Shown here piece by piece: positions 3,697 to 44,362 of a stretch of 64,000 nt of DNA. The stretch is from contig JANMMZ010000085.1 in NCBI GenBank assembly GCA_031373665.1, positions 1,389 to 65,388 on the forward strand, written 5' to 3'. Both the position numbers and the translations under genes were made by a program. Within the stretch, counting starts at the first letter, position 1; each line of letters opens with the position of its first letter. The stretch comes from Saprospiraceae bacterium. GTDB taxonomy: Bacteria > Bacteroidota > Bacteroidia > Chitinophagales > Saprospiraceae. The notes beneath the pieces are model-generated. The model had not been told where the DNA came from. It made no database searches and saw only the letters and a list, made by a program, of their open reading frames with translations.

Positions 3697-3896
3697 GGGA
3701 GGGGATTAGAGGCGGGCTTTTAGTACTACACAAGATAAAACGGGCTTTCCTAATTTTTTAATAAAATTTGGTTTTTTTCGTTAATGAATGTATGTATATG
3801 AGCAACCGGGCATATATCCACTGCATTTTTCAGTATCGCACAAGCATTTCTCAACCGATTCAATCAGAACTAGGGGGAAAACATACTATTTGACGG

Positions 3897-3971
3897 TTCA
3901 ATGATGGTGCAAATCCTACCCATCTGATGACTTCGAGTCATCAGATGGGTAGGATTTGCACCATCATTGAA
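3897..3971. repeat. Perfect 36-bp inverted repeat with a 3-nt loop, 20 nt downstream of the NTPase gene stop. Possibly a terminator or a REP-like element.
   Basis: Checked base by base: 3897-3932 pairs perfectly with 3936-3971 around the loop tcg. The arm ends carry CAATGATGG / CCATCATTG, a motif shared with the 3646-3696 palindrome. Confidence 0.9.
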
Positions 3972-3990
3972 TCATTATTTTCCCAGTTCC

Positions 3991-6504: not shown

Positions 6505-6523
6505 ATTTGTCTGATGTGGGTAT

Positions 6524-7711
6524 TTATGCTTCATATACTGGGTTGTCGCGCTTCCAAAATGCTTGTAAAAAAGGAGAAATAAATACAAATCGGCCGCCCA
6601 AGTCAGTGATGTAACCGTCCTGTTCGAGGCCGCCCACCAATTCCATATATGTGTCTTTTTTGTTGTGCTTGATGGCCAAATCGTACAATTGTCGCGGGTT
6701 GATCTCATTTCGATGAGCGATATACACCAGTGTTTCCATCAAAAATGCGACATCCTCCTTGGTAAAATAGTCAGAGAGGCGGTTTTTCCATTCCTTGAAA
6801 TGGTCGCTGTTTTTGACCACCTTCTCAAAGGCATCATCAATATGTTGTGGCGTAATGACGATATTGTTTGCTTTTCGCGCAGCCCGGTTGATCTCATCCA
6901 ACATCAGGTTGAGAAAATAAGGAATGAAATAGTTGATCTTAGAAAGCAAGTGTTGGGTAAGAGGATCATCGTATTGAACACTAGCACTTTGGGTGGCCCA
7001 GTTGACATAATCGGCCGCTTCGCTAGGTGTCAATGCCTCGAAGGGTACGATCCCAAAGTCATTGATATCGGAAGTGCGCCCTTCTATAGTCTTCACGATG
7101 TGGTGAATGCCGACCGAACCTGCCAATACCAAACTAAAATGTTGTCGGATTTCTGGGTTTTGTCGCCACTCGCGCAGGCGATCCAAAATGCCGCTCGCTT
7201 CATTTTGTTTGCCTTTTTTATATAGATTGTTCAATATTTCGGGCAATTCATCCAAAAGCAGCACGACCTTTACCTTGTTTTGACCAATTTTGGGCAGAAT
7301 CTTATTGATTTCTTCCACGTAATTGATGGGCTTCTTTTCGCCAAATTTTACGCCCTCCAAGGTGATTTCTTCCACAGTAAGGTGTTTGAGGAGGTCGCCG
7401 AGCCAGTTTTTACCTTTTTCAAACTTGCTCAAACATTGTACGATCAGTTCAAAAAACTCTTTGTAAAACTCCGCTTCTGATTGTACGCCTTGTATATTTT
7501 TGAAAATACAACGGGTGTCCTGCGGGCAGTTTTTTTGCATGGCCAGCATGACCGATGATTTGCCCACCCTACGCGGGGCGGCCAAAAGCACATGATTGCC
7601 CTTCTGGGTTTCGGCCCATATTTGCGCCTCTATATCTGGGCGTGGGAAGTAATAATCTCCGATGGCGGTGTTTCCGATGATGATTTTCGGGTCTTTCCAA
7701 GTGGTGCTCAT
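6524..7711 (-). CDS. P-loop ATPase (archaeal-ATPase/AAA-like) with a C-terminal winged-helix-like region
   Basis: Walker A LLAAPRRVGKSSVM and Walker B VVLLLDELPE. Start placed at the ATG at 7711 (MSTTWKDPKIIIGN); the 17-codon upstream extension is unsupported. The gene ends 19 nt before the start of the next NTPase gene. Confidence 0.75.
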   Translation of the reverse strand: MSTTWKDPKIIIGNTAIGDYYFPRPDIEAQIWAETQKGNHVLLAAPRRVGKSSVMLAMQKNCPQDTRCIFKNIQGVQSEAEFYKEFFELIVQCLSKFEKGKNWLGDLLKHLTVEEITLEGVKFGEKKPINYVEEINKILPKIGQNKVKVVLLLDELPEILNNLYKKGKQNEASGILDRLREWRQNPEIRQHFSLVLAGSVGIHHIVKTIEGRTSDINDFGIVPFEALTPSEAADYVNWATQSASVQYDDPLTQHLLSKINYFIPYFLNLMLDEINRAARKANNIVITPQHIDDAFEKVVKNSDHFKEWKNRLSDYFTKEDVAFLMETLVYIAHRNEINPRQLYDLAIKHNKKDTYMELVGGLEQDGYITDLGGRFVFISPFLQAFWKRDNPVYEA

Positions 7712-30556: not shown

Positions 30557-33016
30557 TTATTCGCTGCGCAGGCTCTTAACTGGATTGGCCAAAGCCGCTT
30601 TCACCGACTGGAAACCTACTGTCAAAAACGCAATCAATACCGCTGCCAAGCCAGCCACTGCGAATATCCACCACGAAATATCAATCCGATAAGCGAAGTC
30701 GGCAAGCCAATTATTCATAAAGTAATAAGCAATTGGCGAAGCAATTAGGATCGCAATGACAACTAATTGTAGGAAATCTTTGGCCAAAAGCCCCGTGATG
30801 CCCGCAATAGATGCACCTAGTACCTTTCGGATGCCTATTTCTTTGATTCGCTGCTCCGCAGCATAGGTAGCCAGACCAAACAAGCCAATGCAAGCGATGA
30901 AAATCGCCGCTATTGCCGCCCAAATCAACATGGCTTCACGGCGGGCATCTTCGGTATAAAAAAGAGCCAATTGCTGGTCGAGGTAATGGTATTCAAACAG
31001 TTCATCAGGATCAATTTTTGCTAAAATACCTTCCATCGCTTTTATGGTGGTGGCAGCGTCTTTTGATTCGATTCTTGAAGTATAATAATCAATGTTTTGA
31101 ACGGGATTTTGCCGATACGCCAAGACCAAAGGGGCAATTTTTTCTCTTAATGTCTGAAAATTGAAATCTTTTACTATCCCAATCACCCGGGCTTTAAATG
31201 CCTGATTGCCACGAAGCGGGACATACGTTCCGCCGTATGATGCAGCCGGAATTTCAATCAATTGATCAGATGGCTCTGTGATATTTAGGAGTTTGGCCGC
31301 CGTTTCATTTAATAAAACAGAGGAAGTATCGCCCAAACCGCTGAAATTTTTGCCTTTCAATAATTCTACCTCAAAGGTATTGGAAAAATGCTCATCCACG
31401 CCTAACAAATATGAAACTTTCTGTTCATCAGGATAGCCCATTTGCCTTATTTTAACACTGGGAATATTTTTCCATTCACCTGGCACCCGTGAAGTAGTGG
31501 ATACATTTTTTACATTGGGTATTTTTTCAAATTCTGAAACGATGGTGGAGGCTGCTCTTCTTATCGTGCCACTGTTGATATCCACGACCACCAAAAGGTC
31601 TTTATTGAACCCCAAATCTTTGCTGTTGACGAAACGAACTTGCAAAAACATCACGATGGTTGCAATGATCATAAATACAGATACCGAAAATTGGAAAACA
31701 ACCAAGCCTTTTCGCAAAGAAAAACCTGATTTGTCTTGAATTTTTAGACTTTTCAATAACATATTAGGGCTAAATTGGGAAAGCATCAATGCTGGATAAG
31801 AGCCTGATAATATACCTGTCAAGATAGCCACACTAAATGATGCAACCCAAATCCTATAATCGGTTGAAAAACCAAGTGAGAGTTGTTTGTTGGTAAATTC
31901 ATTGAAAAACGGGATCATTAAATTGACCAATAAAATAGCCAAAACAAAAGAAAATAGCGTTACCAATACTGATTCTACCAGAAATTGTGTTACCAATTGC
32001 CCTTTAAATGCACCCACAACCTTTTTTATCCCAATCTCTTTGCTGCGATTGGAGGCTTTAGCAGTAGTGAGATTCATATAGTTGATACAAGCAATCATCA
32101 ATACAAAAAGAGCGACCAACGCAAATATTTTCACGTACAAAAGATACCCTGTGCCGGCTCCCAATTGATTGAAGTTTCTGGCACCATCCGTAATGCTTTC
32201 GGAATGAAGGTGAACATCTTTGAGTGGCTGAAGGCTATAGGCCAATGATACACCCAGTGCTGGCTTATAGTTGGCATTGACCAATTGCCCTAGTTTTTGT
32301 GAAACAGCGACAAGGTTGGCATCTTTTCGGAGCAGCGTATAAACGGAATATTCGCTTGAGCCCCAATCGCTATTCACCTCATTTACATAACTGGAATCAG
32401 CATAATAGGTGCTTTCGGAATAAACAGAACTAAAATCAAAACTTGAATTCCGAGGATGATTTTTAAGCACTGCGGTAACAGTAAATGGTTGTTCATAGCC
32501 TTGCCATTTCAACGTCTTTCCGGCTACTTGTGTACTGCCAAAAAGTTGAAGGGCCAACGCTTCCACAATGACAATGGAGTTGGGAGCCGTCAAAGCCGTT
32601 TTGGGATTACCATCAAGGGCTTCAAAATCAAATATCTCCATTAAACCATTGTTGGCAACCGTGATTTCTTCATTCACTTTTTTCTGATCTGCCAAGTTTT
32701 CAAGCATATCTCTACCCCCTTGTGCCATGCGGGCTGTATTTTCAATTTCTCCAATACTGATTTTCGATGCTTCCGCCAGTTTGTAACTTGCTCCTGCTAT
32801 TTTAACATCCTCATCGGGTGATTTTCTGTGCTTGATAACACGGCATATTCGATCAGCATTGGTATGATGACTGTCGTAGGTAATCTCATCAATGACGTAA
32901 AGGCCTAATATCAAAAAACAGGCAAGACCGAAGGTCAGGCCAGCGATGTTTAGCACTGCGTGGAGTTTGTTTCTGAAGAGATTTCGGACAGCGATTTTTA
33001 GATAATTGGATACCAT
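30557..33016 (-). CDS. ABC-transporter permease, duplicated FtsX/MacB type (first gene of the array in transcription direction)
   Basis: Start set at the ATG at 33016 (MVSNYLKIAVRNLFRNKLHAVLNIAGL). Signatures SKEIGIKKVVGAF and IKEIGIRKVLGAS. Ends ANPVKSLRSE. Confidence 0.9.
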   Translation of the reverse strand: MVSNYLKIAVRNLFRNKLHAVLNIAGLTFGLACFLILGLYVIDEITYDSHHTNADRICRVIKHRKSPDEDVKIAGASYKLAEASKISIGEIENTARMAQGGRDMLENLADQKKVNEEITVANNGLMEIFDFEALDGNPKTALTAPNSIVIVEALALQLFGSTQVAGKTLKWQGYEQPFTVTAVLKNHPRNSSFDFSSVYSESTYYADSSYVNEVNSDWGSSEYSVYTLLRKDANLVAVSQKLGQLVNANYKPALGVSLAYSLQPLKDVHLHSESITDGARNFNQLGAGTGYLLYVKIFALVALFVLMIACINYMNLTTAKASNRSKEIGIKKVVGAFKGQLVTQFLVESVLVTLFSFVLAILLVNLMIPFFNEFTNKQLSLGFSTDYRIWVASFSVAILTGILSGSYPALMLSQFSPNMLLKSLKIQDKSGFSLRKGLVVFQFSVSVFMIIATIVMFLQVRFVNSKDLGFNKDLLVVVDINSGTIRRAASTIVSEFEKIPNVKNVSTTSRVPGEWKNIPSVKIRQMGYPDEQKVSYLLGVDEHFSNTFEVELLKGKNFSGLGDTSSVLLNETAAKLLNITEPSDQLIEIPAASYGGTYVPLRGNQAFKARVIGIVKDFNFQTLREKIAPLVLAYRQNPVQNIDYYTSRIESKDAATTIKAMEGILAKIDPDELFEYHYLDQQLALFYTEDARREAMLIWAAIAAIFIACIGLFGLATYAAEQRIKEIGIRKVLGASIAGITGLLAKDFLQLVVIAILIASPIAYYFMNNWLADFAYRIDISWWIFAVAGLAAVLIAFLTVGFQSVKAALANPVKSLRSE

Positions 33017-33266
33017 AGTCGTAATTTTTAGTAGCCAATATAGGTTCAATCATTAAGCCATTTTTGTAATATGCTGAATATCAAGGCTTTAAAATATTTA
33101 TTTGAAACTAGAAGTGTCCGAACGCGAACTAATGATGTTCGGTTTCGGACATGATGGAGGGGGGAGTGATGTTATCGTGGGTGAAGCCGTGGTATCCATT
33201 AATATTATGAGATTGAATCTATATTGCTAAAAATAGTTGGGGTAACATAAAAAAATCCCTAGATTA

Positions 33267-33297
33267 TTGCGAGTTATAGAAACTTGACATATATTTG
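33267..33297 (+). promoter_or_regulatory. Candidate Bacteroidetes-type promoter (-33 TTG, -7 TATATTTG)
   Basis: TTG at 33267-33269 and TATATTTG at 33290-33297, with a 20-nt spacer. This matches the TTTG-N(19-21)-TAnnTTTG consensus known for Bacteroidetes primary-sigma promoters. Confidence 0.35.
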
Positions 33298-33364
33298 TGC
33301 CATCAAAATATCATCACTTGAACCACTCGTACCAAATATCATTCAATCTTGCCTTGCATACAGT

Positions 33365-33406
33365 GCGGATACTTGGCCTTTGGGGCTGGGTATCCGCATT
33401 TTTTTT
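33365..33406 (+). terminator. Candidate intrinsic terminator or attenuator
   Basis: gcggatac (33365-33372) pairs with gtatccgc (33390-33397) around a 17-nt loop. It is followed by a and then eight T (33399-33406). Confidence 0.45.
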
Positions 33407-33566
33407 GGGGTTGTTTGGGTGGGTAGTTGCGGGAATCTGACTAGATTTGGTTGGATTGCCGCAACTGGACTGGTGATATGGCGGATTTTTGTGCAACTTG
33501 GGGTATGTGGGGCGTTGCGGGAAACCATAGTTAGACGTAACAAAAACAATATAAAAATAAATAAAC

Positions 33567-34646
33567 ATGGCGAAGTCAAATATTGAAAATGACGATATCA
33601 CTATCCTCAAACAGAAGGTTGATTTTTTAGAAAAGCGTCTAAGTAGTTATGAAGATATTAATAAAACACTATCAACGCAAGTTTTAGGAAAATGGAATGT
33701 AATTGGGCATACGACCAAATTTTTACAATGGGCAGCCGGAATCGTATTCGCTGTTACATTTGGACTATATTGGTTGGTTTATGATAATTTAAGAGATTTT
33801 AAAGAAGAATCAAATCAAAATAAGATAGAAATTACAAAATTGTCAAAACTTTCAAGTTCACTAATTTCTGTTACATCAGATTTACATACAATGAACCTTG
33901 ATTACAATCGTAAACAGTATGAAAGGGTTTTAGACAAAGCAAAAAAGTCTCTTGAAAAGATTGAAGAGGCAAAAAATAATTTATTTTTAAATAATTATGA
34001 CGAACTTAAAATGACATTACTATCTTTTAGGGGAGTAGCTTACTATCAAAAATACCTAGATGATAAAAAAAATAGCTACCCGAATAAAAACGACTTGATC
34101 AATATGATTTCAATTGGGGATACCATGGTAGCACTTAACCCGAATCATTGGAAGGGTTATCAAATTCGTGGGTTTGGCAACTGGGAGAACTCCTCTATAA
34201 ACGGAAGAATATCTAATGATAATGATTACAATAAAATAAAAAGTGATTTGGATAGGTCGGTACAACTAGGAGAAGAATTTAATACAAATACTATAAATTT
34301 AATCGAATTGTCATTTGTAAACTTTCGTTTTGATGAATCTAAATATTATATTACTATCTTTGAAGATAACTTTGGCAATAAGTTTCAAAGATATCGAGAT
34401 AAAAATGGTCAAGTCGCTTATTTATTTTATAAACACATGACTAACTACATTTTATCCAAAGACAAAAATGAACTTAAGGAATTAGATAAGAGCATTGCTG
34501 CTTTGAAAAATAAAGGAGTTCAAAATTTCGATAACACGAATTTAGAAGCATGGTTCATTAATGCCGAAGATAATCCCAATTTACTTCGAGGGATTAATCC
34601 AAATTTACTAAAAACCTGGCGCAAAAAAATATTTAAAACCCCCTAA
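33567..34646 (+). CDS. Hypothetical membrane-anchored protein with an N-terminal coiled-coil segment, one TM helix and a helical repeat-like body
   Basis: 359-aa ORF with AT-rich codon usage like the neighbouring R-M genes. One hydrophobic helix, FLQWAAGIVFAVTFGLYWLVY. I recognise no family. Confidence 0.6.
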   Translation: MAKSNIENDDITILKQKVDFLEKRLSSYEDINKTLSTQVLGKWNVIGHTTKFLQWAAGIVFAVTFGLYWLVYDNLRDFKEESNQNKIEITKLSKLSSSLISVTSDLHTMNLDYNRKQYERVLDKAKKSLEKIEEAKNNLFLNNYDELKMTLLSFRGVAYYQKYLDDKKNSYPNKNDLINMISIGDTMVALNPNHWKGYQIRGFGNWENSSINGRISNDNDYNKIKSDLDRSVQLGEEFNTNTINLIELSFVNFRFDESKYYITIFEDNFGNKFQRYRDKNGQVAYLFYKHMTNYILSKDKNELKELDKSIAALKNKGVQNFDNTNLEAWFINAEDNPNLLRGINPNLLKTWRKKIFKTP

Positions 34647-34997
34647 ACATCTAACAATGCACTGTCTAAAATGTCCGACTAAGCGCGTCCACGTAGCCAG
34701 TGCCCCCGTTAGTTAGCACCAACCATAGGGGCAGCCAAGCATAGTTCCAGATAATAATATTGATTTTCACCAGTTTTTAAGAATAGCGGACAGGCTGAGC
34801 GGAGACAGTAAAGCTTGTGCCCGCAGGCCCCCGCTCCAATTTTGGCAGGTAACCCGGCGCGGCATTGAATATAATATTGACTTACAAGTGGTACACTTTT
34901 CGTGATTAGTGGCAAAATGGAAAACTGTACCTCAACTTTTGACAATAACCAAATTATAAATTGTACCTTAGCAGCCTAAAAAATAAAGACATTCAGC

Positions 34998-36659
34998 ATG
35001 AGTGAAGATTATAAAAGGGGGTTGGAATCGCAACTTTGGAACATTGCCAATACGCTACGTGGCAAAATGAATGCAGACGAATTTCGTGACTACATTTTGG
35101 GTTTCATTTTCTATAAATACCTAAGCGAGAAAATGAACATTTTCGCTGACGAAATCTTGAAACAAGACAATATCAAGTTTCAAGAAATAACACCAAAGAC
35201 TACAGACGGGGCAGCATTTATTGAAGCCATAAAAGAAGAAGCCTTGGAAAAATTGGGCTACTTTCTAAGACCTGAAGAACTGTTTACAGAAGTTGCCAAA
35301 CGAGGAAATTTAATTACGAATGACGAATTAGAAGTGACGAATGAAAAAGAAGACTCAAAAAAAGTAATTCGTAATTCTCAATTCGTAATTAATGAAACCA
35401 ATTTCATTTTAGAAGATTTACAAAAAATCCTGATCAATATCCAGTTGAGTACCATGGGTACTGAAAGCGAAGAAGATTATGAGAATCTCTTTGAGGATAT
35501 GGATTTGAATAGTTCAAAATTAGGCAAAACTCCAGAGGCAAGAAATGCAATCATTGCAAAAGTGCTAACGCACCTTGACAAAATTGATTTCATGTTAGTT
35601 GATCAACATGGCCGTGCTCATCAACATGAAAATGATGTTTTGGGCGATGCTTACGAATATTTGATTGGACAATTTGCCAGTGGTGCAGGAAAAAAAGCAG
35701 GTGAATTTTATACACCGCAACAAGTCTCTACAATTTTGGCAAAAATAGTAACCACAGGAAAACAAAAACTAAAATCAGTTTATGACCCTACTTGTGGTTC
35801 GGGTTCTTTGTTGCTTCGTGTGGCAAGGGAGGTAGAAGATGTAAGTAATTTTTACGGACAAGAAATGAACCGTACTACTTACAACCTTGCCCGCATGAAT
35901 ATGATTTTGCACGGGGTGCATTACCGCCAATTTGATATTAAACAGGACGATACACTCGAACACCCACAGCATATTGACCAACAATTTGAAGCCATTGTAG
36001 CCAATCCACCATTTTCGGCTCAATGGAGTGCCAACCCATTGTTTACCAGTGACGACCGTTTTAGCCAATACGGACGACTTGCACCCAGTAGTAAAGCCGA
36101 CTTTGCTTTTGTGCAACACATGATTTACCATTTGGCAGACAATGGCACGATGGCCATTGTTTTGCCGCACGGTGCTTTGTTTAGAGGTGGTGCAGAGCAA
36201 CACATTCGAACGTATTTGATAGAAAACAAAAACTTTTTAGATGCCGTCATTGGCTTGCCAGCCAATATATTTTATGGTACCAGTATTCCAACGTGTATTT
36301 TGGTTTTCAAAAAGTGTAGAGAAAACCCTGATGACATTTTGTTCATAGATGCCAGCCAGCATTTTGAGAAAGTGAAAACCCAAAATGTTTTAAGGCCCAA
36401 AGACATTGATTTAATTATTGACACGTACCGTAAGAGAACGGAATTGCCAAAGTACAGCAAGAAAGCAACATTAGAGGAAATTGCTAAAAACGATTACAAC
36501 CTGAATATACCAAGGTATGTAGATACCTTTGAGGCAGAAGAAAATATAGACATTGAAGCCATCGCCACAGCACTCAAAGCATTGGATGAATCAATGGCGG
36601 ATACTGACAAAACCATTGCACAGTTTTGTAAGGAATTGGGTATTTCAACACCTTTTTAA
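34998..36659 (+). CDS. hsdM: Type I restriction-modification system, DNA methyltransferase subunit M
   Basis: 553 aa. AdoMet motif I VYDPTCGSGSLLL and catalytic motif IV IVANPPFSAQW. N-terminal HsdM_N-like LWNIANTLRGKMNADEFRDYILGFIFYKYLSE. Confidence 0.95.
   Translation: MSEDYKRGLESQLWNIANTLRGKMNADEFRDYILGFIFYKYLSEKMNIFADEILKQDNIKFQEITPKTTDGAAFIEAIKEEALEKLGYFLRPEELFTEVAKRGNLITNDELEVTNEKEDSKKVIRNSQFVINETNFILEDLQKILINIQLSTMGTESEEDYENLFEDMDLNSSKLGKTPEARNAIIAKVLTHLDKIDFMLVDQHGRAHQHENDVLGDAYEYLIGQFASGAGKKAGEFYTPQQVSTILAKIVTTGKQKLKSVYDPTCGSGSLLLRVAREVEDVSNFYGQEMNRTTYNLARMNMILHGVHYRQFDIKQDDTLEHPQHIDQQFEAIVANPPFSAQWSANPLFTSDDRFSQYGRLAPSSKADFAFVQHMIYHLADNGTMAIVLPHGALFRGGAEQHIRTYLIENKNFLDAVIGLPANIFYGTSIPTCILVFKKCRENPDDILFIDASQHFEKVKTQNVLRPKDIDLIIDTYRKRTELPKYSKKATLEEIAKNDYNLNIPRYVDTFEAEENIDIEAIATALKALDESMADTDKTIAQFCKELGISTPF
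35312..35392. mobile_element. 81-nt palindromic AATTACGAAT-family element embedded in frame in hsdM
   Basis: taattacgaat (35312-35322) and attcgtaatta (35382-35392) are exact reverse complements. Internal gacgaat/attcgta repeats are present. 81 nt is 27 codons, translated as ITNDELEVTNEKEDSKKVIRNSQFVIN. Confidence 0.8.
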
Positions 36660-36660
36660 T

Positions 36661-37255
36661 TGTCTGAATCACAGATTTAATGGATTTAATGATTTCACGG
36701 AATATGAACACAGCATTAAAATACAAGGACATAACCGAAAAAATATTAGGTGCTTCGTTTGAAGTGCATAAATTTTTAGGCAACGGCTTTCAAGAAGTCA
36801 TTTATCAGAGAGCATTGGCTTGGGAAATGAAGCAGAAAGGATTAGAATTTGCCAGAGAAATAGAACAAGATATTTTTTATAAGGATTTGCCAGAACCTAT
36901 TGGTACAAGAAGAGCAGATTTTGTAGTAGAGGGAAAAATTTTGGTGGAGTTAAAAGCCGTTATTCAATTAGAAGACGTGCATTTAGCACAAGCTTTGAAC
37001 TACCTCAAAGCCTATAAATTAGAAGTTGGTTTATTAATAAATTTTGGGAGCAAATCGCTCACTTTTAAACGTATTGTACTATGATAAAACAAAATAGTCA
37101 GCATCACGGATTGAAAAATAGTCAGCATCACGGATTAAAAAATAGTCAGAATCACGGATTAAACGGATTAAAGGATGACACTGATTTAAAATCGGAAAAT
37201 AATCAAAAAAAATCCGTGAAATCTGTGCAATCCTTTAAAATCCGTGATTCAGACA
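36661..37255. mobile_element. Composite of a GxxExxY ORF bracketed by TGTCTGAATCAC(G/A)GATT-family repeats
   Basis: The left end tgtctgaatcacagattt begins at 36661, 2 nt after the hsdM stop. The right side has three 24-nt tandem repeats (agtcag(c/a)atcacggatt at 37096, 37120 and 37144). It then carries a full element body ending aatccgtgattcagaca at 37239-37255, the reverse complement of the left end. Confidence 0.7.
36680..37084 (+). CDS. GxxExxY family protein (PD-(D/E)XK nuclease-like fold)
   Basis: Contains the GFQEVIY (G-x-x-E-x-x-Y) motif. Family-typical ILGASFEVHKFLG and ADFVVEGKILVELKAV (D...ExK-like) segments, and C-terminal LINFG. An alternative start is the ATG at 36704 (MNTALKYKD). 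The stop TGA overlaps the hsdS ATG as ATGA at 37081-37084. Confidence 0.85.
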   Translation: MDLMISRNMNTALKYKDITEKILGASFEVHKFLGNGFQEVIYQRALAWEMKQKGLEFAREIEQDIFYKDLPEPIGTRRADFVVEGKILVELKAVIQLEDVHLAQALNYLKAYKLEVGLLINFGSKSLTFKRIVL

Positions 37256-38532
37256 ACATTCCAGTATTGCGTTTTCCTGAGTTTAATGAGGAATGGAAAG
37301 AAAAGAAGTTGGGGGAAGTAGCGACCAATAAGTCAGGTAAATATAATCCTGAAAAAGAACGAGAATCTGTGAAATGTATTGAATTAGAACATTTATCTTC
37401 GGATTCAAGCCAATTACTGGGATATATTGATGGAAAAAATTCAGGAAGTATTAAGAATAAATTTGATAAAGGCGATGTGCTTTTTGGAAAATTAAGACCT
37501 TATCTAAAAAAGTATTTACTAGCACCTTTTGAAGGAGTTTGTTCGTCAGAAATTTGGGTATTGAAAGGGCTGAATATTTCAAATGACTTTTTATTTAGGA
37601 TAGTGCAAACAGATTCATTTATTGATTTAGCAAATCAATCAAGTGGCTCTAAAATGCCAAGAGCAGATTGGAATGTTGTTGAAAATGGAATATTCTCTTT
37701 CCCCACCCTACCCGAACAAACCAAAATCGCCACCTTCCTCACCGCAGTAGATGAAAAAATCCAAGCCCTCAAAAAGAAAAAAGGCCTTTTAGAAGATTAC
37801 AAAAAAGGGGTGATGCAAAAACTCTTCTGTCTGAATCACGGATTAGATGGATTTAAAGATGACACAGATTTTGACAATGAATCCGTGGAATCTGCGCAAT
37901 CCTTAAAAATCCGTGATTCAGACAATGTACGCTTCAGACAAAAAGATGGCAGCAACTTTCCAGATTGGGAAGTGAAGAAGTTGGGGGAGGTGGCAAAAAG
38001 GAAAACATTGAAAAATAAAGAAGGGAATACAAATGTTCTTACAATTTCTGCACAATATGGATTGATAAGCCAATTAGAATTTTTCAATAAATCTGTTTCT
38101 GCGAAAGATGTAACAGGGTATTATTTATTAGAAAATGGAGATTTTGCATACAATAAAAGTTATTCAAATGGTTATCCAATGGGTGCAATTAAGTGTTTAA
38201 ATAGATATGGAAAAGGTGTAGTTTCAACATTGTATATCTGTTTTAAATTTAATGAAGTGATAAATAATTCATTTATGGAGCATTTTTTTGAAACAGGTAT
38301 TCATAATAGTGAAATTGAAAAAGTAGCACAGGAAGGAGCAAGAAATCATGGTTTGTTGAATATTGGATTAGAAGATTTTTTCAATATTGCAATATCAATC
38401 CCCTGCCTCAAAGAACAAACCGCCATCGCCAATTTCCTATCCGCCCTAGACGAAAAAATAAACCATACGCAAACCCAAATAACCCAAACCGAAACGTGGA
38501 AAAAGGGGCTTTTACAAAAAATGTTTTGTTAA
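37081..38532 (+). CDS. hsdS: Type I restriction-modification system, specificity subunit S
   Basis: Two target-recognition domains. Each is preceded by (L)RFPEF..W..KKLGEV or FPDWEVKKLGEV and followed by the conserved helices LPEQTKIATFLTAVDEKIQALKKK and LKEQTAIANFLSALDEKINHTQ. The first ~60 codons and codons ~250-282 are translations of the repeat element. Confidence 0.9.
   Translation: MIKQNSQHHGLKNSQHHGLKNSQNHGLNGLKDDTDLKSENNQKKSVKSVQSFKIRDSDNIPVLRFPEFNEEWKEKKLGEVATNKSGKYNPEKERESVKCIELEHLSSDSSQLLGYIDGKNSGSIKNKFDKGDVLFGKLRPYLKKYLLAPFEGVCSSEIWVLKGLNISNDFLFRIVQTDSFIDLANQSSGSKMPRADWNVVENGIFSFPTLPEQTKIATFLTAVDEKIQALKKKKGLLEDYKKGVMQKLFCLNHGLDGFKDDTDFDNESVESAQSLKIRDSDNVRFRQKDGSNFPDWEVKKLGEVAKRKTLKNKEGNTNVLTISAQYGLISQLEFFNKSVSAKDVTGYYLLENGDFAYNKSYSNGYPMGAIKCLNRYGKGVVSTLYICFKFNEVINNSFMEHFFETGIHNSEIEKVAQEGARNHGLLNIGLEDFFNIAISIPCLKEQTAIANFLSALDEKINHTQTQITQTETWKKGLLQKMFC
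37828..37924. mobile_element. 97-nt solo MITE-like copy of the TGTCTGAATCACGGATT-family element, in frame inside hsdS
   Basis: tgtctgaatcacggatt (37828-37844) and aatccgtgattcagaca (37908-37924) are exact reverse complements. The body aligns with 37144-37255. It is translated as CLNHGLDGFKDDTDFDNESVESAQSLKIRDSDN, at the junction between the central conserved helix and TRD2. Confidence 0.85.
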
Positions 38533-38544
38533 AATTAATTACAA

Positions 38545-39336
38545 ATGAAGAATTACAAATTACAAATAATACCCACTGATTTGCTCCCTGTTTATTTGGA
38601 GCAAGTGCCTAAGGGTTTGCAGAAAGCATTTGATGCCTTGAAGGACGCAGAGATTTCTACTGATACTTTTAGTTTTTACACTTCGGTATCAGCTATGGCA
38701 TCGAGCAAAATTGAGGGCGAACAAATGGAAATTGACAGCTACATCAAACACAAAATGTTGAATATTGAGTATCTGGAAGACTTGGTTGAAAAACCAAACG
38801 ATTTGTATAATGCTTATCTGTTTGCCCAAAAAAATGAACTCACCGAAAAAAATTTTTTAGAAACCCATAAATTATTGTCAGCACATCTTTTAGCCCCCAA
38901 TAAAAGAGGCGTTTGCAGAACAGGCAATATGGTGGTAATGGAGCATAAAACATTCCGCATACAATATGAAGCTGCCTTGGGGAGCGAAGTAAAACCCTTG
39001 TTTGCCAGACTTTGGAAAGATATTGAGCAACTAAAAAAAGAAAGATTAAGCATAGAAGAAACATTCTTTTTTGCATCATTCATTCATATTGTTTTTGTAA
39101 ATATTCACCCTTTTGAAGATGGAAACGGAAGAGCAGGAAGATTATTAGAAAAATGGTTTTTGGCTCAAATGCTGGGCGAAAAAGTTTGGTATATACAAAG
39201 TGAATTGAATTATTATAAAAACGTAAACAACTATTACAAAAATCTGAACAGGCTCGGAATTTTTTACGAAAAATTGGATTACAACCAAGCTATTCCATTT
39301 CTATTAATGCTACCAAGTTCAATTACGAATATTTAA
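38545..39336 (+). CDS. Fic family protein (AMPylase-type fold)
   Basis: Fic motif HPFEDGNGRAGR, matching HxFx(D/E)GNGRxxR. An upstream SSKIEG matches the [S/T]xxxE[G/N] inhibitory-helix motif. The last codons (SSITNI*) are encoded by the first AATTACGAAT repeat. Confidence 0.9.
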   Translation: MKNYKLQIIPTDLLPVYLEQVPKGLQKAFDALKDAEISTDTFSFYTSVSAMASSKIEGEQMEIDSYIKHKMLNIEYLEDLVEKPNDLYNAYLFAQKNELTEKNFLETHKLLSAHLLAPNKRGVCRTGNMVVMEHKTFRIQYEAALGSEVKPLFARLWKDIEQLKKERLSIEETFFFASFIHIVFVNIHPFEDGNGRAGRLLEKWFLAQMLGEKVWYIQSELNYYKNVNNYYKNLNRLGIFYEKLDYNQAIPFLLMLPSSITNI

Positions 39337-39372
39337 TTACGAATGTTTAATTACGAATATTTAATTACGAAT
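39321..39372. repeat. Four AATTACGAAT repeats with a 14-nt period, upstream of the four-helix-bundle ORF
   Basis: aattacgaat occurs at 39321, 39335, 39349 and 39363. Confidence 0.9.
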
Positions 39373-39379
39373 CACAAAA

Positions 39380-39805
39380 ATGAAAACTGACAATATTATA
39401 CAACAAAAAAATTATGCTTTTGCAGTGAGAATTGTAAAAGTGTATCAATATTTATGTGACGAGAAAAAAGAGTTTACTTTAAGCAAACAGCTTTTAAGAT
39501 GCGGCACATCGGTTGGTGCAAATGTTGAAGAAGCCATTGGTGGGCAAAGTGAAAAGGATTTTTTTGCCAAACTAACCATTTCATACAAAGAAGCAAGGGA
39601 AACACATTATTGGATACGGTTATTGACAGACACTGGTTATTTAACAAAAGAGCAAAGCGAAAGTCTGTTGAATGACATAACAGAAATTCAAAAAATAATT
39701 GGAAGTATTCAACGCACAATCAAATCTCGTAATTCAAAATTAATTACGAATGACGAATTCAAAATTACGAATGACGAATTTAAAATTACGAATGAAAAAT
39801 CATAA
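39380..39805 (+). CDS. Four-helix-bundle protein (family formerly called 23S rRNA intervening-sequence protein)
   Basis: Family-typical AFAVRIVKVYQYL..., LSKQLLRCGTSVGANVEEAIGGQSEKDFFAKLTISYKEARETHYWIRLL. The C-terminal LITNDEFKITNDEFKITNEKS is encoded by AATTACGAATGACGAATT repeats. Confidence 0.85.
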   Translation: MKTDNIIQQKNYAFAVRIVKVYQYLCDEKKEFTLSKQLLRCGTSVGANVEEAIGGQSEKDFFAKLTISYKEARETHYWIRLLTDTGYLTKEQSESLLNDITEIQKIIGSIQRTIKSRNSKLITNDEFKITNDEFKITNEKS

Positions 39806-39923
39806 TAAAAATATAAAAACTATAACTCAATTAAAATACAAAATCGTAATTCGTAATTCACAATTCGTAATTAAAAATTCGTAATTCGTAATTAAAAATT
39901 CGTAATTAAAAATTCGTAATTAA
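39727..39923. mobile_element. Palindromic AATTACGAAT / ATTCGTAATT repeat block between the four-helix-bundle ORF and hsdR
   Basis: aattacga at 39743, 39763 and 39784 forms the left arm, with a ~20-nt period. Seven tcgtaatt copies lie between 39844 and 39921 and form the right arm, in inverse orientation. The last repeat abuts the hsdR ATG at 39924. Confidence 0.8.
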
Positions 39924-42869
39924 ATGAGCAGACAGTCGGAACAAATATTAGAAGAACAACTCATTGCCCAGTTGCAAAAATTGGGGTACGGCTATATTGT
40001 CATCAATAGTGAAAAAGATGTATTGCTCAACCTCAAAGGGCAATTGGAAAAACACAACCAATCCGCCCTAACTAAAACAGGCAATGCACAATTTACCCAA
40101 ACAGAGTTTGAGAAGATTTTAAACCTGTTGAGCAAAGGGTCTGTTTTTGAAAAATCAAAAATGCTTCGCCAAAAGCAACACCTTGTTCGGGAGCATGGAG
40201 ACAACCTGTATTTTGAATTTTTGAATACGGAGCATTGGTGTCAAAATGAATATCAAGTAACCAACCAAGTAAGCCAGGAAGGAAAATTCAAAAACCGTTA
40301 TGATGTAACCATTCTCATCAACGGTTTGCCATTGGTGCAAATAGAACTGAAGCGCAGAGGCTTAGAATTGAAAGAAGCGTTCAATCAAATCAACCGTTAT
40401 CAACGGCATTCGTTTGGTGCAAACGCTGCTTTGTTTCAGTATGTTCAAATCTTCATTATCAGCAATGGCGTAAATACAAAGTACTACGCCAACAACCGCA
40501 ACCAAAGTTTCAAACAAACTTTCTATTGGACAGATGCAGCAAACAAAAGGGTTTCTAATATACTAAATGGCTTTACGGATACATTTTTAGAGCCTTGCCA
40601 CTTGAGCAAAATGATATGCAAGTACATTGTGCTGAACGAAGCCTATAAAATTCCAATGGTACTTCGTCCGTATCAGTTCTATGCTGTGGAAGCTTTAATA
40701 GAAAGAGTAAAGTCACAAGGCCTTACGAGTCAACCCAAAAACGGTTATATATGGCATACCACAGGTTCGGGTAAAACCCTCACAAGTTTTAAAGCCAGTC
40801 AGATTTTAATGGCTTTGCCACAAGTTCATAAAGTGGTTTTTGTGGTGGATAGAAAAGATTTGGATTACCAAACGACTAAAGAATTCAACAGTTTTCAAGA
40901 AGGTTGTATTGACGGAACAGACAATACGCAAAACTTAGTAAAGCAATTTACAGGCACTTATGTTGACAAAAAAGGAGAGGCCAAAAATTCCAAACTCATA
41001 GTAACCACCATTCAAAAACTCAATACTGCAATCAGCAAATTGAAGTATGAGGCTAAAATGGCTGAACTGAAAGACAAACGCATCATTTTTATTTTTGACG
41101 AGTGCCACAGAAGCCAATTTGGCGATACTCACAAAAGAATAAAGGACTTTTTCAATAATGCTCAATTGTTTGGGTTTACAGGCACTCCCATTTTTGCAGA
41201 CAATGCTGCTAAAAACGAACACGGCAAGCGAACCACCAAAGATTTATTTGAAGACTGTTTGCATAAGTATGTAATTACAGATGCTATCAAAGACGAAAAT
41301 GTATTGAAGTTTTCGGTTGAATATGTAGGCAGATATAAGCATAAAGACGGACGAGAGACCAATATTGATATTGAGGTAGAAGACATTGACACTAAAGAGT
41401 TGATGGAAGATGAAACCCGTTTAGAAAAAATAACAGATTACATTATTGCACACCACAACCGCAAAACACACAGCCGAGCGTTTACGGCTATGTTTTGTAT
41501 CAATAATGTGCCTACGCTTATCAAATACGTTGATTTATTCAAAAAGAAAAAAGCCGAAGGATTACACAATTTGAACATTGCAACCATATTCAGTTATGGG
41601 GCAAATGAAGATGATGCAGATGCCAACGGCTTTATCAACTTTGAACAAGATTTTGACAATGTTGATTTGAATCTAGTGGCAGAATCAAAGCCCGAATATA
41701 AAATCAATTCGCATAGCAGAGACAAGTTAGAAGAATTTATAGGTGATTACAACAAACTATTTGGTGATAATTTCACGACCAAAGACAGCCAAAGTTTTTA
41801 CAACTATTACAACGACATTTCAAAGAAAGTCAAGGAACGCAAAATTGACATTTTAATAGTGGTAAATATGTTCCTTACGGGTTTTGACAGCCCAACATTG
41901 AACACCATGTATGTGGACAAAAACCTACGATATCACGGACTAATACAAGCATATAGCCGAACCAACAGAATTTTAAACGAGCAAAAAAGCCAAGGAAATA
42001 TTGTTGCGTTTCGCAACCTCAAAAACCGCACAGACGAAGCGATTACTTTATTTAGCAACAAAGAAGCGATTGAAGTAATCATCATGAAACCGTATGAAGA
42101 CTACACAGCCAAGTTTGACGAAGCCTTTGAACATTTAATTTCTTTGACACCAACTACAGACAGCGTTGATGATTTACAAACAGAAGATGACGAACTTGAA
42201 TTCATAAAGGCTTTCAGAGATTTGATGAGAATAAAAAATGTTCTCACTGCATTTTCAGACTTCAAATGGGAAGACTTGGAAATGACCGAGCAACAATTTG
42301 AAGATTTTAAAAGCAAGTATCTCGACCTTTACGACAAAGTAAAAAGCAACCACCAAAAAGAGAAGGTTTCCATTTTAGAAGATGTGGATTTTGAGTTGGA
42401 ATTAATTCACCGTGACGAAATAAATGTTGCTTATATCATTCAACTTTTAATCAAACTAAAAGCACAAGCTCAAAAAGACACGACAAAAGCAGAACAAGAA
42501 ATATTCAACTTGTTAAGCACCGAAACGACTTTACGTAGCAAACGAGAGTTGATAGAAAAATTTATACAAGAGAATTTGCCAGTAATTGTGGATACAGACG
42601 AAGTTGCACCGGCGTTCGACAAATATTGGAACGAAGAACAGCAAAAGGCATTTTCTAAATTGGTGATTGAAGAAAGCCTTTCACCCGACAAGACAGAAAA
42701 ATTAATTGAAGACTATTTGTTTGCAGAAAGGCCACCATTAAGAGACGAAGTTTTAGAACTCATTGAAGGCGAAAAACCAAGTTTGCTTCAAAGAAAAAAA
42801 CTGGGTGAAAGAATTTTAAAACGTATCATGGACTTTGTAGAAACGTTTATAAACGGAATGGCAGGATAG
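39924..42869 (+). CDS. hsdR: Type I restriction-modification system, endonuclease/translocase subunit R
   Basis: 981 aa. N-terminal nuclease-like region, helicase motif I WHTTGSGKTLTSF, motif II IFIFDECHRSQ, and later motifs TGTPIF and VNMFLTGFDSP. Confidence 0.95.
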   Translation: MSRQSEQILEEQLIAQLQKLGYGYIVINSEKDVLLNLKGQLEKHNQSALTKTGNAQFTQTEFEKILNLLSKGSVFEKSKMLRQKQHLVREHGDNLYFEFLNTEHWCQNEYQVTNQVSQEGKFKNRYDVTILINGLPLVQIELKRRGLELKEAFNQINRYQRHSFGANAALFQYVQIFIISNGVNTKYYANNRNQSFKQTFYWTDAANKRVSNILNGFTDTFLEPCHLSKMICKYIVLNEAYKIPMVLRPYQFYAVEALIERVKSQGLTSQPKNGYIWHTTGSGKTLTSFKASQILMALPQVHKVVFVVDRKDLDYQTTKEFNSFQEGCIDGTDNTQNLVKQFTGTYVDKKGEAKNSKLIVTTIQKLNTAISKLKYEAKMAELKDKRIIFIFDECHRSQFGDTHKRIKDFFNNAQLFGFTGTPIFADNAAKNEHGKRTTKDLFEDCLHKYVITDAIKDENVLKFSVEYVGRYKHKDGRETNIDIEVEDIDTKELMEDETRLEKITDYIIAHHNRKTHSRAFTAMFCINNVPTLIKYVDLFKKKKAEGLHNLNIATIFSYGANEDDADANGFINFEQDFDNVDLNLVAESKPEYKINSHSRDKLEEFIGDYNKLFGDNFTTKDSQSFYNYYNDISKKVKERKIDILIVVNMFLTGFDSPTLNTMYVDKNLRYHGLIQAYSRTNRILNEQKSQGNIVAFRNLKNRTDEAITLFSNKEAIEVIIMKPYEDYTAKFDEAFEHLISLTPTTDSVDDLQTEDDELEFIKAFRDLMRIKNVLTAFSDFKWEDLEMTEQQFEDFKSKYLDLYDKVKSNHQKEKVSILEDVDFELELIHRDEINVAYIIQLLIKLKAQAQKDTTKAEQEIFNLLSTETTLRSKRELIEKFIQENLPVIVDTDEVAPAFDKYWNEEQQKAFSKLVIEESLSPDKTEKLIEDYLFAERPPLRDEVLELIEGEKPSLLQRKKLGERILKRIMDFVETFINGMAG

Positions 42870-43228
42870 CCCATGCTTTTGGTGGCACATTTGCAAAGCC
42901 GCACGACCTGTCCCGCTGCTGCGGGAATGAACTAGGCAAATAGATAAATCGCTCAACTTTGCACAGATGTCCATCCCTCCTAAACGTCGGTACGGGCAGA
43001 GAGGCAACCAATATATCTTACTAAGTTCTACCCAATCTGCAAGCAGCCCAATTTGTAAATAGGGTTTTGTTTCAGGTTGCGCCACCACCTATTAATTTTG
43101 AGCAGGCTTCGCCCATCACTGTATCAGTTATCAAATTAAATCGGATGTTTTTTCAATGAACTAATTATTTTTTTCAAGGCTTTTCAAGGAAACATAGCCA
43201 AAACTAACATTAAAATTTTAAAATTAAC

Positions 43229-44362
43229 ATGGACAACAAACCTGAGATAATTCAAACAATCATTGAAAATATTTTTTTCGCTATACGTGATACATTAAAC
43301 AAAATAATACTTTTTATCTTGTTGACAATCATTAGTTCTTGCAACGCGCAAGAAAAAACAAACACATTTAATCCCCCCAATATTTCCAAATCAAGTCCAA
43401 CAGTAATAAAAAACTTTAAGTCCATTGCTGTAGCTCCTGATTTTGATACCACCTTAGTCAGTCAATATATCCGAAGTATTTTTCAGGATTCTAAAGGGAA
43501 TTTATGGTTTGGTACGTTAGGCGAAGGCGTAGTGAGATATGATGAAAAAACATTGACCTACTTTTCCAATCCTGATGGTTTTAATAACAACACAGTTTAT
43601 GCCATCAATGAAGATAAAAATGGTAATCTTTGGTTTGGGACTGACCAAGGCGTTTATAAATATGATGGAAAAACTTTTAAAAATTACAATCAAAAAGATG
43701 GACTAAACCATATAGACATAAGTCGAAAAAGCATCCTTGTTGACAAATCAGGTACTATTTGGGTGGGCACACATGGCGGCGTTTACCAATATGACCCGTC
43801 TGCCGATAGCAAAGGCGGTCAAAGTTTTTCATTATTTCAACTACTTCCTTCTATAAATATTGCTGGCATCATGGAAGACAAAAGTGGCAACATTTGGTTT
43901 GCTTCTTCGAATAAAGGTGTCTTTCGCTATGATGGAAAAACAATTACCAATATTGCAGAAAAGGAAGGTTTGGGAGAGAACTATGCAGGAGGAATCGCAG
44001 AGGATAAAGATGGAAATGTGTGGTTTACTATGAAAAACGGCATTTGCAAATATGATGGAAAAACCTTAACAGAATATACCCCCAAAGACGGATTAGGCGG
44101 AACTGAATTTTGGGGAATGATTATAGAACAGTCAGGTATTGTTTGGGTTACAGCCCGAGGCAGTACTACTAGATTTGATCCTTCTATTCCCTTACCAAAT
44201 CCCAAAGCATTTACGGTGTTTACAGTAAAAGATGGTCTTAATTGCTGTGTTCAAAGTATGTATCAAGATAAGTCAGGAAATATGTGGTGGGGTGCAGGAT
44301 CAGGTCTTTTCCGGTTTGATGGAACGCGCTTTTATCAAGTTAAACAGAATGGCCCTTGGTAG
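43229..44362 (+). CDS. Two-component-regulator-propeller (Reg_prop) repeat protein, probably a lipoprotein
   Basis: At least six repeats of the form GN(L/I/V)WFGT..GV..YDGKT(F/L/I)(T/K)(N/Y). N-terminal hydrophobic segment ending IISSC, lipobox-like. Confidence 0.8.
   Translation: MDNKPEIIQTIIENIFFAIRDTLNKIILFILLTIISSCNAQEKTNTFNPPNISKSSPTVIKNFKSIAVAPDFDTTLVSQYIRSIFQDSKGNLWFGTLGEGVVRYDEKTLTYFSNPDGFNNNTVYAINEDKNGNLWFGTDQGVYKYDGKTFKNYNQKDGLNHIDISRKSILVDKSGTIWVGTHGGVYQYDPSADSKGGQSFSLFQLLPSINIAGIMEDKSGNIWFASSNKGVFRYDGKTITNIAEKEGLGENYAGGIAEDKDGNVWFTMKNGICKYDGKTLTEYTPKDGLGGTEFWGMIIEQSGIVWVTARGSTTRFDPSIPLPNPKAFTVFTVKDGLNCCVQSMYQDKSGNMWWGAGSGLFRFDGTRFYQVKQNGPW

Follow-up and report, generated by a model that had tools for sequence, protein, structure and literature searches.

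The stretch of DNA analysed here is a window of 64,000 nucleotides (nt) from a Saprospiraceae bacterium (assembly GCA_031373665.1, contig JANMMZ010000085.1). It contains a type I restriction–modification (R-M) operon in which a small gene of the GxxExxY family, enclosed by inverted repeats, separates hsdM from hsdS. Positions are those of the 64-kb window, all operon features lie on the + strand, and comparisons refer to a set of 200 related loci designated by L-numbers. The hsdM gene (34998-36659; 553 amino acids (aa); TIGR00497, 447 bits; relatives L104-L183) ends in a TAA codon (36657-36659) that stands directly against the left arm of a 595-nt unit, the cassette (36660-37256). Its 44-nt inverted arms, ending TTGTCTGAA...TTCAGACAA, enclose a gene for a 126-aa GxxExxY protein (36704-37084), which lies in the loop of the resulting hairpin. 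The open reading frame (ORF) called as hsdS (37081-38532; 483 aa; two stretches of PF01420 Methylase_S) has its first in-frame start at an ATG (37081-37083) that overlaps the GxxExxY stop codon (ATGA); the same overlap and open frame are found in L001 and L190. Alignment with empty sites places the ancestral part of hsdS from Asn6 onward (NIPVLRFPEF...; 37255-38532). The cassette is probably one member of a family of mobile units of this construction.

The cassette and its nuclease-like protein

The left arm (36660-36703; TTGTCTGAATCACAGATTTAATGGATTTAATGATTTCACGGAAT) is composed of GATT-type units of about 9 nt and pairs over its full length with positions 37205-37256. When the outer arms are joined, about 44 nt are paired and the DNA folding energy is -27.5 kcal/mol (z -8.6). 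At the extreme ends, TGTCTGAATCACAGATT occupies 36661-36677 and AATCCGTGATTCAGACA occupies 37239-37255; the inverted repeats can be described as 19-nt arms at 95% identity or 17-nt arms at 100%, and in relatives the termini read (C)ATTGTCTGAA...TTCAGACAAT(G). Downstream of the gene the left-arm terminus recurs in tandem as three 24-nt units (AAAATAGTCAG[C/A]ATCACGGATT[G/A]A; 37091-37163; Tandem Repeats Finder period 24, 3.0 copies, 95% matches), each encoding NSQ(H/N)HGLK. The third copy opens a complete internal hairpin (37142-37256), preceded by the two extra copies, with folding energies of -40.3 kcal/mol as RNA (z -8.6) and -25.7 kcal/mol as DNA (z -7.5). The 3′ half of this internal hairpin (37211-37256) is at the same time the right arm of the cassette, ending ...GATTCAGACAA. 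A gene-less hairpin of 97 nt with perfect 17-nt termini (37828-37924; RNA -44 kcal/mol, z -9.4; DNA -22.7 kcal/mol, z -7.2) lies farther downstream, within hsdS. Its two halves resemble the arms of the cassette, the right with 93% identity and the left with 81%.

The sequence features named in a preliminary description of this DNA, which had recognized the repeats and the hsdS start within them, are all present, and the inverted repeat is 1-2 nt longer than was thought. The significance of the repeat similarity, on which that description was reserved, is now clear. The 17-mer TGTCTGAATCACGGATT, with up to three mismatches, occurs seven times in the window, always within 36661-37924, against a chance expectation of 0.14. 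Seven matches were reached in 0 of 100 shuffles.

The most likely start of the GxxExxY gene is ATG 36704. An earlier reading placed it at 36680, but of more than 100 close homologues nearly all have a length of 125-126 aa and begin MNTALKY or M..ELKY, so the upstream codons MDLMISRN are better assigned to the left arm.

The protein scores 131.6 bits against TIGR04256 (cut-off 35) and 124.6 bits against PF13366 PDDEXK_3 (cut-off 22), and the family to which it belongs comprises 14,439 clusters at 50% identity (E up to 1e-3). In a set of 50 representatives with 40-84% identity to the window protein, Y34 of the motif G28-F-Q-E31-V-I-Y34 is invariant, and G28, E31 and the residues D72, E82 and K84 are each at least 90% conserved. 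A QxxxY motif follows at Q96-A-L-N-Y100; Q96 is invariant in close homologues, and the A4 consensus is AQxxNYL. An AlphaFold2 model calculated with a diverse alignment has a mean predicted local distance difference test (pLDDT) score of 96.2 and the topology H-H-E-E-E-H-E-E; it supersedes a model based on 29 sequences 87-96% identical to the window protein, which had a pLDDT of 40. Foldseek matches to the model are all PD-(D/E)XK nucleases. The first is Cas4 SSO0001 (E 1.3e-3), and the others include lambda-exonuclease/RecB-type domains, MGME1, tRNA-splicing endonuclease, Hjc and I-Bth0305I. PADLOC yields a weak match to a Cas4b hidden Markov model (HMM) and no other defence-system match for the cassette, and sequence searches of the PDB, with the single protein and with the 50-sequence profile, gave nothing meaningful. 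By its predicted fold, the GxxExxY protein is a minimal RecB/Cas4-like PD-(D/E)XK nuclease. It is not Cas4 proper, since its 126 residues include no cysteine and hence cannot carry an Fe-S cluster. The 2012 census of the PD-(D/E)XK superfamily lists the function of PDDEXK_3 as unknown and records multiple transfers of the family between divisions (PMC3424549); a published pipeline has mislabelled a cas4 gene as GxxExxY (PMC8934634).

Pairwise comparisons give dN values of 0.03-0.14 and dS values from 1.2 to saturation, as expected of a protein under strong purifying selection. Some members of the family (P0123, P0159, P0167 and others) are proteins of 250-275 aa with two tandem GxxExxY domains, and the existence of such fusions suggests that the single-domain protein works as a dimer.

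Empty and occupied alleles of the hsd operon

Eighty loci that encode relatives of the HsdM C-terminus (74-92% identity) reveal the state of the junction without the cassette. In the five closest HsdM relatives the junction is empty and reads hsdM-TAA-ATGGAAAAGCAAATG-AACATACC..., that is, TAA, 1-3 nt and ATGGAAAAGCAAATGAACATACC.... The empty sequence, ATG GAA AAG CAA ATG AAC ATA CCA CAA TTG CGT TTT CCT, encodes MEKQMNIPQLRFPEF, and this type of hsdS start is the majority state down to 74% HsdM identity. No more than 4-5 of the 80 operons have a GxxExxY gene of any kind. The cassette stands, in the window as in L001 and L190, exactly between the TAA and the codon for Asn6 (AAC or AAT), the right junctions being GAC|AAC ATT CCA, GACA|AAC ATA CCA and GAC|AAT GTG CCT in that order. 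The 17 nt that contain both native ATGs (ATG GAA AAG CAA ATG, encoding MEKQM) are missing from all three occupied alleles. Comparison with empty sites, proposed in the preliminary description as a check, thus finds relatives empty or occupied at precisely the hsdM/hsdS junction. Other occupants of the same junction are known. L116 and L117 have a gene-less hairpin of another arm class, whose right arm holds an in-frame ATG for hsdS, and L125 has a paralogous gene between arms of a third class, the left end of which gives the hsdM stop codon, with the hsdS ATG directly after the right end (GACAAATG).

Loss of the native start makes initiation of hsdS inside the cassette the simplest reading of the sequence. 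From ATG 37081, 58 repeat-derived codons precede the first ancestral codon (AAC, 37255) and 62 precede LRFPEF. The leader (37081-37254) is open in the hsdS frame only, each of the other two frames containing 8-9 stop codons, and the ORF from the ATGA stays open through the repeats of L001 and L190 despite indels and a difference of 1 nt in frame across the arm. The earlier proposal that hsdS starts within the repeat thus has indirect support, from the lost ATGs and from a frame kept open in three alleles.

The 97-nt hairpin is read in frame within hsdS as CLNHGLDGFKDDTDFDNESVESAQSLKIRDSD(N). It stands in place of the SQE residues that link the conserved central helix to the second target recognition domain (TRD2) of HsdS and reads CLNHGLDGFKDDTDFDNESVESAQSLKIRDSDN, where more than 30 relatives have the normal centre ...YKKGVMQKLF-SQE-LRFKDENG.... 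The preliminary description suggested that this copy would be a non-autonomous derivative of the cassette; the gene may instead have invaded the loop of a hairpin. Standalone hairpins without a gene do exist, both at the hsdM/hsdS junction and at the hsdS centre of other alleles. Four different hairpins, in two reading frames, occupy the central site. In L104, L108 and L135 a different hairpin (ttgtctgaattaggattgg...aaattcagaca) is read in the other frame (LSELGL...KFRQ), and L001 has a 5′-truncated hairpin whose right end encodes RFRQ. The sequence TTCAGACAA recurs within codons for VRFRQ just after the window hairpin (37933-37941), a probable scar of an older hairpin end.

The interrupted hsdS gene encodes two Methylase_S domains, and its central YKKGVMQKLF and C-terminal KKGLLQKMF segments agree with those of relatives. 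DNA homology among the window, L001 and L190 is confined to three stretches: hsdM with the cassette and the initial ~60 nt of hsdS; the conserved centre with its hairpin and the beginning of TRD2; and the conserved C-terminal segment. The latter two correspond to 37706-37992 and 38408-38532 in the window, and TRD1 and TRD2 differ in all three alleles. Because alleles with different TRDs share the hairpin segments, the hairpins must be old in this hsdS lineage, and the interrupted gene evidently stayed in use. Since homology is limited to conserved, hairpin-containing segments, the hairpins also lie where TRDs are exchanged, and they might serve as portable crossover sites for TRD shuffling.

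Cassettes, arms and gene ends in other genomes

A protein search with the window sequence returned more than 8000 matches, the top 120 of which, all 85-100% identical, come from metagenome-assembled genomes labelled Bacteroidia, Phycisphaerales and others. When one genome per species was scanned, at least 574 relatives emerged, and the best 80 (63-92% identity) were examined. These 80 loci span at least 10 phyla and include Bacteroidota, Cyanobacteria, Poribacteria, Latescibacterota, Spirochaetota, Nitrospirota, Fibrobacterota, Verrucomicrobiota, Ignavibacteria and Calditrichia, among others. Two near-identical homologues are represented by L001-L020; in 20 of 20 of these loci the gene separates hsdM from hsdS and has the same arms: TTGTCTGAATCAC[A/G]GATT starting 43-44 nt before the ATG (TGTCTG core at 43), and AAATCCGTGATTCAGACAA downstream. 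The hosts of these 20 are operons of two types; the HsdM proteins of the window and L011 are only 30% identical, whereas the GxxExxY proteins are 90.5% identical. Elsewhere the cassette is found between hsdS and hsdR (L013), between two histidine-kinase genes (L021), and beside genes for a permease, radA and sugar metabolism. In L022, a neighbourhood unrelated to R-M retains 52 nt of the hsdM 3′ end and 30 nt of the hsdS 5′ end. Genes of the hsd type are neighbours in about 16 of the 80 loci, and the remainder lie elsewhere. The gene and its arms thus behave as one unit, as first supposed: they keep together in all 20 of these loci and in unrelated contexts, and closely related operons have or lack them at the junction.

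Both neighbours are oriented in the same direction as the GxxExxY gene in 48 of 61 loci. A scan of the window operon for sigma-70 promoters and intrinsic terminators, which leaves out promoter types of Bacteroidota, gave no excess over shuffled sequence. The co-oriented neighbours and the want of promoter or terminator signals fit a promoter-less existence within operons.

Arms of this kind prove to be general companions of GxxExxY genes, a point that the preliminary description had left to comparison with other members of the family. The median inverted-repeat score of the flanks is 14, compared with 9 in distant controls. Of 80 loci, 32 have GTCT[GT][AG]A no more than 160 nt upstream (about 2.5 expected) and 40 have its complement no more than 420 nt downstream (about 6.7 expected). 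Most commonly the left arm starts 41-53 nt before the ATG and the right arm ends about 50 nt after the stop codon, a geometry that places the gene in the loop of a hairpin. Inverted arms flank family members with as little as 34-39% identity. In those at 37-39%, on Bacteroides and Bernardetia plasmids, the arms are unrelated in sequence (CACAGAGGA units), and the layout, between co-oriented genes, is the same.

Within this general plan, the sequence of the arms co-varies with the subfamily of the protein. Where the protein is at least 80% identical to that of the window, 29 of 38 loci are flanked by the 16-mer GTCTGAATCACGGATT with up to two mismatches; below 72% the count is only 2 of 34, and the loci of this group carry GTCTGAACC.TGATT or GTCTTAACTATGATT arms instead. 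Among far controls it is 3 of 70. Two paralogues in a single operon, that of L011, have different arms. In an alignment of 18 hairpins the termini GTC.GAA/TTC.GAC are invariant and six stem pairs display compensatory changes, and the 16-nt terminus is conserved between lineages whose synonymous sites are saturated. Gene-less hairpins can stand alone, flank the gene as a pair or follow one another in tandem. A tandem array of arm units follows an hsd operon with a GxxExxY gene in L112 (5126-5481), where six GTCTGAA termini are spaced at a regular 71 nt. The arms could function as an RNA stem or, in DNA, as a hairpin or cruciform. Among the mismatches of 48 arm pairs, 67 are sense-strand G.U and 86 are A.C oppositions; the lack of a G.U excess speaks mildly against a constraint on sense RNA alone. 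Whichever holds, insertions, empty sites and duplications reflect events at the level of DNA.

The ends of the cassette bear a close relation to the ends of the genes next to it. At the left end, which has TGA in one frame and leaves the other two open, an ORF of at least 80 codons stops between 6 nt outside and 28 nt inside that end in 24 of the 40 loci where it is recognisable, and in 11 of these 24 the stop codon is the TGA of GTCTGA itself. At the right end, the ATG of the downstream gene follows directly (GACAATG) in about a dozen loci. In nine histidine-kinase loci (L029, L030, L034, L037, L039, L041, L043, L049 and L066) the cassette lies exactly at the kinase stop codon (...FIIQLPV-V*), and beyond its right arm there is an in-frame, decaying second copy of the last ~33 codons (IQT.YDIVKAHGGEIKV...FIIQLPI*). 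These duplicated 3′ ends of about 85-100 nt sit in the roughly 50-150 nt on either side of the cassette, and the downstream copies decay by frameshifts. L034 has three successive kinase ends, separated by a gene-less hairpin and by a gene-carrying cassette. Other genes display similar duplications: the conserved 3′ end of an FtsX-type permease in L075, and the first seven codons of hsdR in L184 (2300-3000). All are imperfect, and they range from 22 to 100 nt. An ungapped block comparison of the histidine-kinase genes, aimed at a co-conversion tract, was uninformative because of indels.

The remaining genes of the window operon belong to the same + strand unit (34998-42869), in the order hsdM, GxxExxY, hsdS, Fic, a four-helix-bundle gene and hsdR. 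The Fic gene (38545-39336; SoFic-like, PADLOC 71.6 bits) lies between hsdS and hsdR, as does the four-helix-bundle gene (39380-39805; TIGR02436/PF05635 23S_rRNA_IVP); hsdR (39924-42869; TIGR00348, 484 bits) is the last. The operon forms part of an island (window 33000-44000) with a GC content of 0.30-0.38, compared with 0.45-0.50 in the surroundings, which suggests that it was acquired horizontally; an ORF of 359 aa without a family match (33567-34646) belongs to the same island. An Rfam scan of 34500-43500 (E up to 1) matched only a miRNA model, by chance, on a hairpin.

A second, unrelated family of hairpins, built of AATTACG(AAT) units and their complement, is found at 35312-35390, 38537-38567, 39302-39372, 39742-39800 and 39840-39924; all copies of both families in the window fall within the low-GC island. 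The first of these hairpins (AATTACGAAT...ATTCGTAATT) is in frame within hsdM. The HsdM of L001, 91% identical, has a shorter, unrelated loop at this point; no clean empty site was found, and the hairpin stands in for a loop of variable length. The four-helix-bundle gene is bracketed by same-sense units (39302-39372 and 39742-39800) and inverted ones (39840-39924), in the same gene-in-hairpin layout as the cassette (39302-39924), and the right end lies 0 nt before the hsdR ATG. Units of this family contain the Fic stop codon and surround the Fic ATG, and the first Fic codons, MKNYKLQI, derive from AATTACAAAT units. Far from the operon, the - strand ORF 3991-6708 contains an ordinary-looking 96-nt tandem repeat (4418-4963; 5.7 copies, 90% matches) that encodes Sel1/TPR-like units (YYLQAIEKGHV.ALYNLANLY...) of a 905-aa ATPase-like protein.

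Mechanism, alternatives and precedents

The cassette probably represents a widespread family of promoter-less, operon-embedded, hairpin-bounded units that spread at the DNA level by homology-assisted insertion. Arms of ~9-nt GATT-type units with invariant ends hold the nuclease-like gene in the hairpin loop. The window cassette entered the hsdM/hsdS junction with its left end on the hsdM stop codon, replacing about 17 nt that included the hsdS start MEKQM, and a gene-less hairpin of the same family replaced the SQE codons in the middle of hsdS, where it is read through in frame. Translation of hsdS from inside the cassette, most simply by termination-reinitiation at the ATGA, would then endow HsdS with a 58-codon, repeat-encoded N-terminal extension. 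In the relatives, the ends are suited to sparing host genes, the left by offering TGA or open frames and the right by often giving or abutting an ATG. Gene conversion or Campbell-type recombination into the conserved ends of multi-copy gene families may account for the spread, since copies are flanked by imperfect gene-end duplications, and since cassettes of different subfamilies share, and have evidently replaced one another at, a single junction. It is possible that such recombination is triggered by the cassette nuclease, through cleavage or end-processing of the hairpin, of a cruciform or of the empty site. A cut-and-paste transposase would not be expected to leave gene-end duplications of this kind. 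The original suggestion that the GxxExxY gene is cargo of an element bounded by terminal inverted repeats therefore survives as a mobile gene-plus-arms unit and fails for a classical transposon, given the lack of a short duplication and of a transposase.

A wider proposal is more tentative. Perhaps the GxxExxY family as a whole is the signature nuclease of an undescribed class of mobile elements, in which a promoter-less gene occupies the loop of a sequence-specific hairpin placed in operons or even in coding sequences. Hosts would be spared by stop codons, start codons, open frames and spare gene ends, and nuclease-triggered, homology-dependent spread would carry the elements across phyla and leave gene-less hairpins behind. 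The targets may be conserved ends of histidine kinases, FtsX permeases and hsd genes, the four-helix-bundle “23S rRNA IVS” proteins may be cargo of a parallel class, and crossover sites in HsdS may be a side effect.

Several observations weigh against an element that spreads in this way. Saturated synonymous sites indicate old, conserved genes, not products of recent transposition, and purifying selection of this strength, which a protein useful to the host would explain equally, is not usual in a nuclease that is purely selfish. The fifth of loci that adjoin type I R-M genes could reflect a functional link instead of an insertion preference, and none of the copies in the 64-kb window falls outside the hsd operon. 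Relatives occur in only two viral contigs and seven plasmid records, numbers that also led us to reject phages and plasmids as vectors. Neither a short target-site duplication of fixed length nor a common target motif was found at 40 left and 44 right junctions, and the window junctions likewise have no such duplication; gene-end duplications accompany only some loci, and we infer their origin. Finally, GTG 37216, GTG 37225 and TTG 37267 are in-frame candidates for the hsdS start besides ATG 37081.

Three other explanations have been weighed. That the repeats are similar by chance or low complexity, with an hsdS N-terminus that is merely odd, might be entertained in an AT-rich region with a GC content of about 0.34, but it is effectively ruled out by the excess of 17-mer matches already described, by fold z-scores of -7 to -9 and by the recurrence of the arms in dozens of independent loci. 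It is conceivable, though unlikely, that the hairpins form an independent family of MITEs (miniature transposable elements with inverted repeats) or repetitive extragenic palindromic (REP)-like sequences, moved in trans by a Y1/REP-associated tyrosine transposase (RAYT)-type or insertion sequence (IS) transposase encoded elsewhere in the genome; the 97-nt copy would then be primary and GxxExxY a passenger or a homing-type gene that colonized the loop. Gene-less hairpins are indeed common, whether single, paired around the gene or in tandem, and the gene is always at the hairpin apex, as expected were the loop its target. In one related operon, L012, the gap between hsdS and hsdR (3700-4360) holds an IS200/RAYT-like (Y1) transposase ORF that is truncated and is accompanied by REP-like hairpins rich in GC (ccctttcagggc...). 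An unrelated enzyme, however, would hardly make the class of arm follow the protein subfamily across phyla and even within one operon. There is no transposase in the window or in typical loci, where the only ORF of the cassette is the 126-aa PD-(D/E)XK protein, and the arms are without the GTAG/CGTC tags of REP families (PMC3733652).

The gene and arms might, alternatively, constitute an operon module useful to the host, the arms forming an RNA stem for processing of the RNase III type or for stability that would let the gene be expressed within operons, the small nuclease perhaps acting in defence or repair, and the patchy distribution arising from transfer of defence islands. The very strong purifying selection on the protein, the enrichment of loci beside type I R-M genes, the low GC content of the window island, and an orientation shared with the neighbours without an outstanding promoter or terminator are all in keeping with such a role. 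So is the nearby four-helix-bundle gene, of a family known from rRNA intervening sequences and in the same layout; the Coxiella intervening sequence is cut by RNase III (PMC4990558). We nevertheless consider a host module quite unlikely. It would not account for cassettes beside histidine-kinase, permease, radA and sugar-metabolism genes, for gene-less hairpins in frame within coding sequence, for destruction of the start codon of hsdS, or for decaying duplicated gene ends alongside the cassette. The arms, moreover, have no sense-strand G.U bias, and PADLOC finds no defence match beyond the weak similarity to Cas4b.

A mobile, hairpin-bounded cassette would have consequences beyond this operon. 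GxxExxY/PDDEXK_3 is among the larger bacterial families without an assigned role, and its defined DNA architecture makes the function directly testable, since empty sites, cognate arms and gene-less derivatives are in hand. If the proposal is correct, it would explain why small orphan genes (GxxExxY, four-helix-bundle) recur within operons for restriction, CRISPR and other functions, why annotated proteins of Bacteroidota and Cyanobacteria contain odd peptides encoded by repeats (NHGLNGLKDDTD..., KIRDSDN), and how an insertion can delete a start codon and yet leave an apparently working gene. Errors in start codons and protein lengths can be flagged in genes annotated beside such cassettes.

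The cassette has a fair chance of being a distinct class. No description of a hairpin-bounded GxxExxY architecture was found in the literature searched, of which coverage was incomplete, so that an earlier description elsewhere is possible; each of the nearest precedents shares only part of the features. Free-standing homing endonuclease genes, among them seg and mob of phage T4, are likewise small nuclease genes between conserved genes, present or absent among close relatives, and their spread is best explained by recombination with flanking homology. Homing endonucleases with the PD-(D/E)XK fold are exemplified by I-Ssp6803I and I-Bth0305I (PMC2988022, PMC3239194). However, homing genes have neither inverted arms nor gene-less derivatives, and the cassette protein is a bare 126-aa core without a separate DNA-binding domain. 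The Rpn/YhgA-like nucleases (PDDEXK_2) are also PD-(D/E)XK enzymes that have been proposed to stimulate recombination and are linked to transposase-like families. These enzymes, of about 290 aa, fall in another Pfam family, and hairpins do not enclose their genes. Nucleases of the Cas4/RecB family (lambda exonuclease, AddB, MGME1) supply the best structural matches, the D...ExK and QxxxY motifs and the weak Cas4b HMM match, but the cassette protein is half their size, lacks Fe-S cysteines and has no CRISPR or helicase partners.

Other precedents resemble the cassette in its DNA. Integron cassettes likewise combine a promoter-less ORF with an imperfect palindrome, oriented with an upstream promoter; in contrast, the present cassette has arms on both sides, without GTTRRRY (RYYYAAC) cores, and there is no integrase among the operon ORFs and no attI array. 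The REP and REPIN sequences differ in their tags, GTAG/CGTC being absent from termini that read GTCTGAA/TTCAGAC, and no Y1 gene lies in the window. Rickettsia palindromic elements and MITEs such as Correia/NEMIS, ERIC and RUP are, like the hairpins described here, palindromes of about 100 nt with inverted ends that are co-transcribed with host genes, and the Rickettsia elements occur in frame in protein-coding genes that remain open (PMC3733652). They carry no gene, and those of the Correia type make a short TA duplication that is absent here; the cassette, unlike them, has a family-specific nuclease gene in its loop, arms that co-vary with it, and ends that give stop and start codons. A further parallel in layout is offered by the intervening sequences (IVS) of 23S rRNA genes in Leptospira and Coxiella (PF05635), in which a small ORF lies in a long inverted-repeat stem and the host gene survives the insertion. 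These sequences are acquired horizontally, with no known mechanism of mobility (PMC4990558), and a gene of the PF05635 family, in the same layout, is located 2.3 kb downstream in this operon. In contrast to IVS elements, which interrupt helix 25 or 45 of the rRNA and whose ORF is decaying in Coxiella, the cassette is placed between and inside protein-coding genes, encodes a protein of another family and maintains its ORF under strong purifying selection.

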